Below, in pieces: positions 16,917 to 43,732 of a stretch of 64,000 bases of DNA. The translations under genes were made by a program, and so were the position numbers. The DNA is from Escherichia coli (GTDB taxonomy: Bacteria; Pseudomonadota; Gammaproteobacteria; Enterobacterales; Enterobacteriaceae), in NCBI RefSeq assembly GCF_001677475.2, contig NZ_CP015229.1. One strand, written 5' to 3'. The notes beneath the pieces were generated by a model that was not told the DNA's origin, made no database searches, and saw only the letters and a program-made list of their open reading frames with translations. How positions within the stretch are numbered: the stretch's first letter is position 1; each line of letters begins with the position of its first letter.

Positions 16917-17106
16917 TAAAGGCGCCGAAGCGCCTTTCAAATTGATGACAAAGTGCGTTTTTATGCCGGATGCGGCGTGAACGCCTTATCCAGCCTACAA
17001 GATCGTGCAAATTCAATACATTGCAGAGACCATGTAGGCCTGATAAACGAAGTGCATCAGGCAATGTTGAGTTTGTCATCAGCCTCAAAGGCGCCGAAGC
17101 GCCTTT
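16917..17106. repeat. REP pair (BIME/RIP-like): two inverted REP units with a linker, bracketed by duplicated hairpin AAAGGCGCCGAAGCGCCTTT
   Basis: REP unit TGCCGGATGCGGCGTGAACGCCTTATCCAGCCTAC (about 16964-16998) and inverted unit TGCCTGATGCACTTCGTTTATCAGGCCTAC (about 17033-17064); identical 20-bp hairpins at 16918-16937 and 17087-17106. Confidence 0.8.
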
Positions 17107-26943: not shown

Positions 26944-27127
26944 ATTTCTCTGAGATGTTCGCAAGCGGGCCAGTCCCCTGAGCCGATATTTCATACCACA
27001 AGAATGTGGCGCTCCGCGGTTGGTGAGCATGCTCGGTCCGTCCGAGAAGCCTTAAAACTGCGACGACACATTCACCTTGAACCAAGGGTTCAAGGGTTAC
27101 AGCCTGCGGCGGCATCTCGGAGATTCC
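26944..27127 (+). ncRNA. ssrS: 6S RNA
   Basis: Matches the E. coli 6S RNA as I remember it from ATTTCTCTGAGATGTTCGCAAGCGGGCCAGTCCCC to GGCATCTCGGAGATTCC; ends approximate to a few nt. Confidence 0.9.
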
Positions 27128-27750: not shown

Positions 27751-27810
27751 GGGCGACACACCTGCATCGCCCTGATTGACATCGTTGATTCTTTAACCTA
27801 ATTTAGTGAG

Positions 27811-27951
27811 TAAGGGTAAGGGAGGATTGCTCCTCCCCTGAGACTGACTGTTAATAAGCTGGGAAACTTATGAGTAACAGTACAATCAGTATGATGACAA
27901 GTCGCATCATAACCCTTCTCCTTTAAGCCCTCGCTTCGGTGAGGGCTTTTC
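27811..27951 (+). ncRNA. sibC: Sib-family antitoxin sRNA (SibC), antisense to ibsC
   Basis: Promoter TTGACA (27776-27781), 17-nt spacer, TAATTT (27799-27804); terminator hairpin AGCCCTCGCTTCGGTGAGGGCT plus T-run at 27926-27951; ends approximate. Confidence 0.65.
27851..27910 (-). CDS. ibsC: type I toxin peptide IbsC, 19 aa (MMRLVIILIVLLLISFPAY as translated here)
   Basis: Minus-strand ATG 27910..27908 to TAA 27853..27851; short hydrophobic peptide fully inside the antisense sRNA. Confidence 0.7.
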   Translation of the reverse strand: MMRLVIILIVLLLISFPAY

Positions 27952-29626: not shown

Positions 29627-30286
29627 TCATTTCACAATGGTTTTGACACCGTCAGGTGTGCCAATCAGCGCAACGTCCGCGCCACGGTTAGCAAACAAGC
29701 CAACAGTCACCACGCCAGGAATCGCATTTATGGCGTTTTCCATCGCTATCGGGTCAAGGATTTCCATGCCGTGGACGTCGAGGATCACGTTGCCGTTATC
29801 GGTCACCACGCCCTGACGGTATTCCGGACGACCGCCCAGTTTCACCAGCTGGCGCGCCACTGCACTACGTGCCATCGGGATAACTTCTACTGGCAGCGGG
29901 AATTTGCCCAGAATATCAACCTGCTTGGAGGCGTCGGCAATACAGATAAATTTTTCCGCAACCGAAGCAATGATTTTTTCACGGGTCAGCGCCGCGCCGC
30001 CGCCTTTGATCATTTGCATGTGGCCGTTGATTTCATCTGCGCCATCAACGTAGATGCCAAGGCTGTCGACTTCGTTGAGATCAAAAACGTGAATGCCGAG
30101 GCTTTTCAGTTTTTCAGTGGAAGCATCTGAACTGGAAACGGCCCCTTCAATCTGGCCTTTCATTGTACCGAGCGCGTCAATAAAGTGTGCGGCGGTGGAA
30201 CCTGTACCTACACCAACAATGGTGCCGGGCTGAACATACTGAAGTGCCGCCCATCCTACTGCTTTTTTCAATTCATCCTGCGTCAT
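29627..30286 (-). CDS. rpiA: ribose-5-phosphate isomerase A, 219 aa
   Basis: ORF 29627..30322; start at [10 protein letters not shown] (ATG 30286..30284) gives the K-12 length. Confidence 0.9.
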
Positions 30287-30322: not shown

Positions 30323-30520
30323 TATACTCTAAATAATTCGAGTTGCAGGAAGGCGACAAGAGAGTGACAAATTCGTCAGGAACGAATTTGCCCAGCCGCA
30401 GGCTGGCCTTCGGTGAGAGACATGGATGTCTCTCATTAATCCCCAGGAGCTTACAGAAGTAAGTGACTGGGGTGAGCGAACGCAGACGCAGCACATGCAA
30501 CTTGAAGTATGACGAGTATA
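30323..30520. repeat. ERIC/IRU element, long form with a ~70-bp internal insertion
   Basis: Contains the ERIC core AAGTAAGTGACTGGGGTGAGCG; collinear with the inverted copy at 42381..42507 except for extra DNA at about 30368-30437. Confidence 0.8.
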
Positions 30521-41050: not shown

Positions 41051-41250
41051 GCTTTTGGCGAAAAATCCCCGCAGAGCGGGGCTCAGACAGATATCAATGT
41101 GCGCTTTGTCATGCCGGATGCGGCGTGAACGCCTTATCCGGCCTACAAAAACCTGCAAATTCAATATATTGCAGGATACGTGTAGGCCTGATAAGCGTAG
41201 CGCATCAGGCAACTTTTCTTTTGGCGAAAAAAAGACCCGCAGAGCGGGCC
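41051..41250. repeat. REP pair (BIME/RIP-like) bracketed by a ~30-bp direct repeat containing a small hairpin
   Basis: REP unit TGCCGGATGCGGCGTGAACGCCTTATCCGGCCTAC and inverted unit TGCCTGATGCGCTACGCTTATCAGGCCTAC; flanks TTTTGGCGAAAAA..CCCGCAGAGCGGG at 41054-41083 and 41220-41250. Confidence 0.8.
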
Positions 41251-41274
41251 TTGAGATAAGCAGAAAGGAATATC

Positions 41275-42354
41275 TTACAGAACGTCGATCGCGTTCAGTT
41301 CCTGGAATGCTTTTTCCAGACGAGCGATCATCGAAGTCTGACCGGCACGCAGCCATACACGCGGATCGTAGTATTTCTTGTTCGGCTGATCTTCGCCTTT
41401 CGGGTTACCCAGCTGACCCTGCAGATAAGCTTCGTTTGCTTTGTAGTAGTTCAGAACGCCTTCCCAGGTTGCCCATTGGGTATCGGTATCGATGTTCATT
41501 TTAACTACGCCGTAGCTTACGGAGTCTTTGATTTCCTGAGCAGTAGAACCGGAACCACCGTGGAATACGAAGTTCAGGCTGTTGTGCGGCAGGTTGTGTT
41601 TCTTAGAAACATATTCCTGAGAATCACGCAGGATGGTCGGAGTCAGAACCACGTTACCCGGCTTGTAAACACCGTGTACGTTACCGAAGGACGCTGCGAT
41701 GGTGAAACGCGGGCTGATTTTGCTCAGCTCGGTATACGCATAATCAACGTCTTCCGGCTGGGTGTACAGTGCAGAAGCGTCCATGTGGCTGTTGTCCACG
41801 CCGTCTTCTTCACCACCGGTGCAACCCAGTTCGATTTCCAGAGTCATGCCGATTTTGGACATGCGCTCCAGGTATTTAGAGCAGATTTCGATGTTCTCTT
41901 GCAGAGATTCTTCAGACAGGTCGATCATGTGAGAAGAGAACAGCGGCTTGCCGGTAGCTGCGAAGTGTTTTTCACCCGCGTCCAGCAGACCGTCGATCCA
42001 CGGCAGCAGTTTCTTCGCGCAGTGGTCGGTGTGCAGGATAACCGGAACACCATAATGTTCAGCCATCTGGTGAACGTGATGCGCACCAGAGATCGCGCCC
42101 AGGATAGCAGCACCCTGCGGAACATCAGATTTCACGCCTTTACCAGCGATAAAGGAAGCACCACCGTTGGAGAACTGAACGATAACCGGCGCTTTAACTT
42201 TAGCAGCGGTTTCCAGTACGGCGTTGATGGAGTCAGTACCGACGCAGTTTACTGCTGGCAGTGCGAAGTTGTTTTCTTTTGCTACCTGGAAAACTTTCTG
42301 TACGTCATCACCAGTGATTACGCCAGGTTTTACGAAATCAAAAATCTTAGACAT
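41275..42354 (-). CDS. fbaA: fructose-bisphosphate aldolase class II, 359 aa
   Basis: ORF 41275..42438; start at MSKIFDFVKPG (ATG 42354..42352) gives the K-12 length. Confidence 0.95.
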   Translation of the reverse strand: MSKIFDFVKPGVITGDDVQKVFQVAKENNFALPAVNCVGTDSINAVLETAAKVKAPVIVQFSNGGASFIAGKGVKSDVPQGAAILGAISGAHHVHQMAEHYGVPVILHTDHCAKKLLPWIDGLLDAGEKHFAATGKPLFSSHMIDLSEESLQENIEICSKYLERMSKIGMTLEIELGCTGGEEDGVDNSHMDASALYTQPEDVDYAYTELSKISPRFTIAASFGNVHGVYKPGNVVLTPTILRDSQEYVSKKHNLPHNSLNFVFHGGSGSTAQEIKDSVSYGVVKMNIDTDTQWATWEGVLNYYKANEAYLQGQLGNPKGEDQPNKKYYDPRVWLRAGQTSMIARLEKAFQELNAIDVL

Positions 42355-42380
42355 GTCTCTTGTCCTGTATCGTCGGGCCT

Positions 42381-42507
42381 TATACTCGTCATACTTCAAG
42401 TTGCATGTGATGCGTCTGCGTTCGCTCACCCCAGTCACTTACTTATGTAAGCTCCTGGGGATTCACTCTCTTGTCGCCTTCCTGCAACTCGAATTATTTA
42501 GAGTATG
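42381..42507. repeat. ERIC/IRU element, short ~127-bp form, in the pgk-fbaA intercistronic region
   Basis: Contains both ERIC core strings (ATGTAAGCTCCTGGGGATTCAC and the reverse complement of AAGTAAGTGACTGGGGTGAGCG); inverted relative to the copy at 30323..30520. Confidence 0.85.
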
Positions 42508-42568
42508 AAAAAGTGCGTGCTTTAAAAGCGCGCTGCAACAAGGGCAGGTTTCCCTGCCCTGTGATTTT

Positions 42569-43732
42569 TTACTTCTTAGCGCGCTCTTCGAGCATCGCTA
42601 CTGCAGGCAGTACTTTACCTTCCACGAATTCGAGGAATGCGCCGCCGCCAGTGGAGATGTAGGAGATTTTGTCAGCAATGCCGAACAGGTCGATTGCTGC
42701 CAGAGTGTCGCCGCCGCCAGCGATGGAGAACGCTTCGCTGTCTGCGATAGCGTTAGCCACGATTTCAGTACCTTTGCGGAAGTTCGGGAATTCGAACACG
42801 CCAACCGGACCGTTCCACAGAATGGTTTTCGCATTCTTCAGGATTTCAGCCAGTTCCTGAGCGGAAGCATCACCGATATCCAGGATCTGCTCGTCAGCTT
42901 TCACATCGTTAACAGATTTCAGGGTAGCCGGTGCAGTTTCAGAGAACTCGGTTGCTACGCGAACATCAGACGGAACCGGGATGTTGCAGGTGGTCAGCAG
43001 ACGTTTAGCTTCGTCAACCAGGTCAGCTTCGTAAAGGGATTTACCCACATCGTGGCCTTGTGCCGCGATAAAGGTGTTAGCGATACCACCACCAACAATC
43101 AGCTGGTCAGCGATTTTAGACAAGGAGTCCAGAACGGTCAGTTTGGTAGATACTTTAGAACCACCAACGATAGCCACCATCGGGCGAGCAGGTTCTTTCA
43201 GTGCTTTACCCAGCGCGTCCAGTTCAGCTGCCAGCAGCGGGCCTGCGCACGCAACGTCAGCGAATTTACCGATACCGTGAGTAGAAGCCTGCGCGCGGTG
43301 AGCAGTACCGAATGCGTCCATTACGAACACGTCACACAGTGCAGCGTATTTTTTGGACAGGGTTTCGTCGTCTTTCTTCTCGCCTTTGTTGAAGCGAACG
43401 TTTTCCAGAACAACCAGTTCACCTTCAGCAACGTCAACGCCGTCGAGGTAATCTTTAACCAGACGAACCGGGTTAGACAGTTTGTCTTTCAGGTAGTTAA
43501 CAACCGGCAGCAGAGAGAATTCTTCGTTGTACTCGCCTTCGGTAGGACGACCCAGGTGGGAAGTTACCATCACTTTTGCGCCTTGTTTCAGGGCCAGTTC
43601 GATGGTCGGCAGAGAAGCACGGATACGCGCATCGCTGGTTACTTTCCCGTCTTTTACTGGTACGTTCAGATCCGCACGGATAAATACACGTTTCCCAGCA
43701 AGATCCAGATCGGTCATCTTAATTACAGACAT
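42569..43732 (-). CDS. pgk: phosphoglycerate kinase, 387 aa
   Basis: ORF 42569..43795; start at [11 protein letters not shown] (ATG 43732..43730). Confidence 0.95.

Follow-up and report, generated by a model that had tools for sequence, protein, structure and literature searches.

An ordinary ERIC element in the pgk–fbaA spacer of Escherichia coli: a probable passive RNA hairpin and not an inversion switch

What does a 127-nt palindromic repeat do between pgk and fbaA in Escherichia coli: does its transcript influence the stability or processing of the mRNA, does it recombine with an inverted partner copy, or is it the silent remains of a mobile element? We asked this of one 64,000-nt stretch of E. 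coli DNA (the window), which is 98.6% identical to K-12 over 14 kb and whose pgk–fbaA junction, used as an 814-nt query, has a best identity of 99.6% to any complete E. coli genome. For the pgk–fbaA element, here called copy 2, we establish the identity, position, fold, distribution and absence of inversions, and weigh its possible effects on the transcript (Table 1).

Table 1. Features at and around the two ERIC copies of the window, with the basis of each assignment.
Feature	Position	Strand	Basis and remarks
ERIC/IRU copy 2, 127 nt	42381–42507	− (pgk–fbaA mRNA-sense, better-folding strand)	Both ERIC-PCR primers (ERIC1R, ERIC2) match exactly
pgk coding sequence, 387 aa	42569–43732	−	Translation MSVIKMTDL...EERAKK (stop); RefSeq annotation of homologous E. 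coli hits
fbaA coding sequence, 359 aa	41275–42354	−	RefSeq annotation of homologous E. coli hits
Hairpin 1 after pgk stop, GGGCAGGG-AAAC-CCUGCCC	42541–42560	−	Fold and alignment A3; cross-genus, older than the ERIC
Hairpin 2, GCGCGCUUUUAAAGCACGC (42515–42533), with A/U-rich tail	42508–42533	−	Spacer fold; position conserved in alignment A3
fbaA leader, 26 nt, Shine–Dalgarno AGGA	42355–42380	−	Abuts the 3' end of the ERIC on the mRNA; no variable column among 10 E. coli strains
ERIC copy 1, 197 nt	30324–30520	+	Repeat finder and alignment; inverted relative to copy 2, strain-variable
71-nt palindromic insert inside ERIC copy 1	30368–30438	+	Alignment of the two copies

That a 127-bp ERIC copy lies between pgk and fbaA, as the initial annotation had proposed, is borne out by primer matches and by its position in the 214-nt spacer. 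The ERIC1R primer matches exactly at 42445–42466 (+) and the ERIC2 primer exactly at 42423–42444 (−). Read on the + strand (TATACTCGTCATACTTCAAG...TTATTTAGAGTATG across 42381–42507), copy 2 is an imperfect palindrome with the conserved core and the length of the ERIC/IRU family, and it ends, as those elements do, in 7-bp terminal inverted repeats (ATACTC...GAGTAT) with TA at the ends. Its boundaries coincide with the gap in ERIC-free relatives, but the site, unlike that of copy 1, the partner element, has diverged too far for the TA to be assigned. Copy 2 begins 61 nt past the pgk stop codon (42569–42571, −) and ends 26 nt ahead of the fbaA ATG (42352–42354, −), the intergenic position in a transcribed region that is typical of the family (operon transcription according to PMC2759082). 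ERICs are multicopy, with a median of 5–6 megablast places per E. coli genome, as befits a dispersed repeat, and further copies occur in the Citrobacter and Hafnia loci that we fetched around FbaA; within the window, the central 60-mer of copy 2 occurs once (0 expected from 100 shuffles). Copy 2 shares length, palindrome, primer core, terminal repeats, TA, intergenic site and multicopy state with the ERIC/IRU elements (reviewed in PMC2229807 and PMC3184786); it is an ordinary member of this family of small non-autonomous mobile elements, and nothing essential differs.

A search of Rfam at gathering thresholds returned no match at copy 2 and no ERIC family. At permissive thresholds, RF02818 V_AS5 (Vibrio RNA AS5) matched over its full length at 42389–42508 (−), with 41.3 bits and E = 6e-8. 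The architecture of V_AS5 is the same as that of copy 2 and the match is on the mRNA strand, but the score is far under the gathering score of 96, and we rejected copy 2 as a member. The likeness suggests that the V_AS5 family models the transcript of an ERIC-like repeat. The kind of element and, probably, this very copy are already known; a pgk–fda ERIC was presumably already among the original ERIC/IRU lists. On its own copy 2 matters little: the repeat is a textbook one, its position is conserved and the operon is well studied.

The predicted fold of copy 2 on the mRNA strand has an energy of −49.3 kcal/mol (z = −7.3), which none of 200 shuffles equalled, and is a hairpin of the kind that ERICs form; a 'stable stem-loop' postulated earlier at this site agrees with this prediction. 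The complementary strand reaches −39.9 kcal/mol. When the whole spacer is folded, the hairpin still forms as an independent module. The predicted structure includes long double-stranded stretches, one of them 11 bp of perfect pairing close to its base, and its 5' arm is rich in A and U.

Outside the ERIC, the spacer is organized around two hairpins and the fbaA leader. Hairpin 1 is followed by UUGUUGC in the window and, in aligned ERIC-free relatives, mostly by a short U-rich stretch such as AAUUUUC. The A/U-rich tail of hairpin 2, ACUUUUUC, spans 42507–42514, so that its last base overlaps the first base of the ERIC (42507), which starts directly after it. Together, hairpins 1 and 2 (42508–42568) look like a partial terminator or a 3'-end stabilizer of pgk transcripts that is older than the ERIC. 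A promoter scan of the spacer gave no promoter-like site, and its only terminator-like match was on the non-transcribed strand. Because 5'RACE placed no transcription start within the 214 nt of the spacer (PMC2759082), fbaA relies on upstream promoters.

Our preferred reading, to which we assign a probability of roughly 0.55, is that copy 2 is immobile and works as a passive RNA-structure module whose effect on mRNA stability is modest at most. We infer both the co-transcription of copy 2 with pgk–fbaA, from the literature, and any effect on stability; a role of the stem-loop in mRNA stability is plausible. Transcribed within the pgk–fbaA mRNA, copy 2 would fold alone into a long imperfect hairpin, and ribosomes finishing pgk should not unfold it because it lies 61 nt beyond the stop codon. 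The hairpin would then be a structural block that could slow 3'-to-5' exonucleases on the pgk segment, and after a cleavage the 5' end of the fbaA segment would be structured. Ribosome access to fbaA should be unaffected by copy 2, at 26 nt from the AUG. Opening the fbaA ribosome site (−15 to +13) is predicted to cost 4.87 kcal/mol when the ERIC is present and 4.93 kcal/mol when it is removed; with this cost unchanged, the ERIC should not directly control fbaA translation.

Two known systems offer precedents. As summarized in PMC2229807 and PMC3184786, Yersinia ERICs alter mRNA stability in an orientation-dependent manner, and a ribosome-dependent RNase E mechanism has been proposed for some of them. 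The Yersinia elements resemble copy 2 in being co-transcribed between two genes and forming a hairpin in the mRNA, and an orientation-dependent effect would be expected in both. The Yersinia ERICs of De Gregorio et al. in 2005 reportedly lie at or next to stop codons, whereas copy 2 is 61 nt away from the pgk stop and behind two hairpins. This separation makes the Yersinia-type RNase E mechanism unlikely for copy 2. The REP/BIME elements are described as intercistronic stabilizers (Higgins et al. 1982, as cited in PMC3184786). Like copy 2, they are repeated palindromes within operons and possible barriers to 3'-to-5' exonucleases; copy 2 differs in belonging to another repeat family and in being much longer, and the far end of fbaA has what looks like a true BIME (41103–41223).

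The history of the insertion can be read from relatives. Of 5426 complete E. coli genomes, 5414 matched a tight 227-nt query for copy 2 (the ERIC plus 50-nt flanks) at a coverage of at least 80%; the pgk–fbaA copy is essentially fixed in E. coli, whereas copy 1 is not. Among 80 FbaA loci, fetched from contigs that represent one genome per species, the ERIC is absent from most of the Enterobacteriaceae sampled. The ERIC-free spacers of this family measure 83–101 nt, and that of Kluyvera, at 87 nt, equals 214 − 127. Hairpin 1, hairpin 2 with its U-run and the 26-nt leader are common to the ERIC-free relatives (alignment A3), in which the leader sequence GGCCGA(A/C)GAUACAGGAC...AUG is kept across the Enterobacteriaceae, and the insertion point of the ERIC falls precisely between the second hairpin and the leader. 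Escherichia albertii carries the same element at the same site with its 72-nt core deleted, leaving a 55-nt remnant of both ends, the predicted hairpin of which is weak (−13.9 kcal/mol, z = −2.0). Because both ERIC ends are retained there, the insertion predates the split of E. coli and E. albertii. We picture the ERIC as having inserted into an older pgk–fbaA spacer, between the two pgk hairpins and the 26-nt fbaA leader, before that split, and as having since become essentially fixed in E. coli.

Citrobacter sp. FP75 (L004:1348-1474) carries a complete but diverged ERIC (75% identity) at the same pgk–fbaA site and in the same orientation. The site is empty in Citrobacter werkmanii and in the other Citrobacter, Enterobacter and Kluyvera species sampled. 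The FP75 copy may share ancestry with the E. coli insertion or may be a second insertion at the same site; correspondingly, the pgk–fbaA site is either a recurrent target or the place of an ancient insertion with repeated clean loss. In Hafnia paralvei (L018:2782-2907), an ERIC lies downstream of fbaA instead.

The main rival to the passive module is that copy 2 is a neutral relic, a dead mobile element that is rarely deleted and does not measurably alter the expression of pgk or fbaA. We consider this possible, but doubtful. We counted variable alignment columns among 10 E. coli strains, a comparison of low power: 4 of 300 at the pgk 3' end, 3 of 61 in the hairpin region, 7 of 127 in the ERIC, 0 of 26 in the fbaA leader and 10 of 300 at the fbaA 5' end. 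These 10 strains gave no signal of constraint on the ERIC, which varies like the rest of the spacer and roughly within the range of synonymous sites; by this sequence measure, the conserved functional piece of the spacer appears to be the fbaA leader and not the ERIC. A relic would vary in this way, would lose its core as in E. albertii, would be dispensable in genera that keep the same flanking signals without it, and would leave the predicted access to the ribosome site unchanged. However, a hairpin of −49 kcal/mol in an abundant mRNA is unlikely to be wholly invisible to RNases, the Citrobacter copy retains its pairing through G–U pairs on the mRNA strand only, and Yersinia ERICs are reported to affect mRNA levels (PMC2229807). 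The even variability of ERIC and spacer, the loss of the core in E. albertii, the flanking signals shared by ERIC-free relatives and the unchanged predicted access to the ribosome site do speak against a strong effect.

The asymmetry between strands bears on how far the element may have been shaped as RNA. The FP75 copy folds to −49.9 kcal/mol on the mRNA strand, with 8 G–U pairs, versus −26.5 kcal/mol on the other strand. Of the 14 pairs that differ between E. coli and FP75, 8 still pair on the mRNA strand (3 of these through changes on both sides), and only 4 would pair on the other strand. This hints at constraint at the RNA level; alternatively, the asymmetry may be a property of the whole family rather than the result of selection at pgk–fbaA. 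In copy 1, the rpiA-sense strand is the weaker-folding one. Two further readings, advanced together and only as speculation that we regard as unlikely, would give ERICs more importance: that this one was recruited as a selected RNA module, and that ERICs are still active or plastic in E. coli. Under the first, selection may have kept the pgk–fbaA ERIC paired solely on the mRNA strand, as hinted by the G–U asymmetry, which is strongest in the same-site copy of Citrobacter. If true, the ERIC could tune the ratio of pgk to fbaA mRNA.

A stronger form of the stem-loop idea in the initial annotation is that copy 2 is a dedicated processing site, a specific target of RNase E or RNase III at which the pgk–fbaA mRNA is actively split so that the two enzymes are made at different levels. 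The long double-stranded stretches, the 11-bp perfect basal helix and the AU-rich 5' arm would suit such a target, and RNase E processing is documented at the neighbouring epd–pgk boundary (PMC4191395). Our literature search, however, found no report of cleavage in the pgk–fbaA spacer, and the supplements of the RNase E mapping paper list neither pgk nor fbaA; nothing specific was found that links an ERIC to pgk or fbaA, or RNase III to fbaA. Close relatives with the same operon also lack the element or carry it in shortened form, and it shows no sequence constraint among the 10 E. coli strains. We judge this reading improbable.

The initial annotation also described an inverted partner ~12 kb away, and copy 1 matches that description: it lies in inverted orientation with 11,860 nt between the copies, 37 nt upstream of the true rpiA ATG (30284–30286, −; MTQDEL), facing argP. 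The two had been called near-identical, which holds for their arms. The repeat finder pairs 30438–30520 with 42381–42463 (83 nt, 98% complementary, 2 mismatches) and 30324–30367 with 42463–42506 (44 nt, 100% complementary). It does not hold for the elements as wholes: copy 1 is 197 nt long, not 127 nt, because the 71-nt insert splits the same ERIC, and the tracts of perfect homology between the copies are 29, 34, 17 and 44 nt.

Could RecA recombination between these copies flip the 11.9-kb argP-to-fbaA block and yield genome isomers? The inverted orientation and the matching arms, 83 nt (98%) and 44 nt (100%), make this formally possible, and a built-in potential for inversion had been claimed on that ground. 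We built the two predicted inversion junctions (rpiA side–ERIC–fbaA start, and argP side–ERIC–pgk end) and searched them against the 5426 complete E. coli genomes. Neither junction was present at a coverage of at least 80% in any of them, and the best places matched the native half alone (53–60%). The native pgk–ERIC–fbaA junction, as the 814-nt query at the same coverage, is intact in 5422 of 5426 genomes; because a query of the same design recovers the native junction so widely, the search detects contiguous junctions. Both copies occur together in only 66 genomes, all 66 in the native arrangement with native flanks at copy 1. The sequenced genomes thus show no inverted isomers, the outcome that the initial annotation had itself named as counting against the idea.

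Perfect tracts of this length (44 nt at most) are close to the minimum usually quoted for RecA recombination, and exchange across tracts of 29, 34, 17 and 44 nt is possible but should be inefficient. From the gene order, the inverted product would set fbaA and the 5' end of rpiA side by side, with fbaA reading away from rpiA, and would bring the region upstream of rpiA up to pgk; fbaA would lose its promoters, and rpiA probably would too. The pgk–fbaA operon is described as growth-essential (bioRxiv 10.1101/2024.06.16.599206), and with fbaA deprived of its promoters the inversion is therefore expected to be strongly counter-selected. These results leave the inversion reading very improbable. 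Copies 1 and 2 are not a recombination switch.

Chromosomal inversions do occur between inverted rrn operons, IS elements and prophages. In these cases, as in the ERIC pair, two inverted homologous sequences flank a segment, but they provide kilobases of homology, whereas the ERIC pair provides 127 nt in tracts of 44 nt or less, with isomers in 0 of 5426 genomes. The clean negative has a general use, in that short inverted ERIC pairs should not be taken as built-in inversion switches.

Least credible of all is that copy 2, for all that it lies just 26 nt upstream of the fbaA AUG, acts as a promoter for fbaA within the operon or masks the Shine–Dalgarno sequence and so controls translation, given that the scan found no promoter-like site and 5'RACE no transcription start in the spacer (PMC2759082), and that occlusion was rejected in silico (4.87 versus 4.93 kcal/mol).

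Copy 1 has a different history from that of its partner. K-12 lacks it and has a clean empty site, CGCATTATATACAAAA, the comparison of which with the filled site fits a TA target-site duplication. When native flanks and a coverage of at least 80% are required, 66 of the 5426 complete E. coli genomes (about 1%) have an ERIC at rpiA–argP. Its length varies: strain MEW has a 127-nt form, the window the 197-nt form and E2348/69 a form of about 275 nt, in which a second insert of 78 nt sits at the mirror position. The 197-nt form was found in none of the 5426 complete genomes. The 127-nt form differs by 1 internal base from the pgk–fbaA copy of K-12. This variation suggests recent gain or precise loss in E. 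coli; the inverted partner is a rare, strain-specific and probably recent insertion.

The 71-nt insert recurs at the same internal ERIC position in the panC–rpnC ERIC of O157:H7 EDL933 (L084:1201-1275); 611 of 5426 genomes contain it, at one place in the median genome. Such palindromic inserts, 71 and 78 nt long, come and go inside ERICs. The second of the two speculative readings, that ERICs may still be active or plastic in E. coli, draws on the presence and absence of the element at rpiA–argP, its three sizes, the nested 71- and 78-nt inserts, the recurrence of the 71-nt insert at another ERIC locus and the near-identity of the short form to the pgk–fbaA copy of K-12. The rpiA–argP variation and the nested inserts, together with the G–U asymmetry of the pgk–fbaA copy, may interest researchers of small mobile elements.

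The other side of fbaA carries a repeat of its own. Two 121-nt direct repeats (41103–41223 and 16955–17075), 83% identical and 24 kb apart, each contain a match to Rfam ES036 (CssrF), at 41147–41189 and 16999–17041, and their sequence resembles a REP/BIME cluster (GCCGGATGCGGCG...GCCTGATAAGCG). The copy in the mscS–fbaA spacer lies between two similar hairpins, CCCCGCAGAGCGGGGC at ~41068–41083 and GACCCGCAGAGCGGGCC at ~41236–41252. The fbaA gene therefore lies between two repeats, with the ERIC 5' of it and this BIME-like repeat 3' of it. Elsewhere in the window, 6S RNA (ssrS) and a Sib antitoxin RNA lie at 26944–27127 and 27776–27926; both are known genes expected here, and the Sib RNA is the ibsC locus of K-12.
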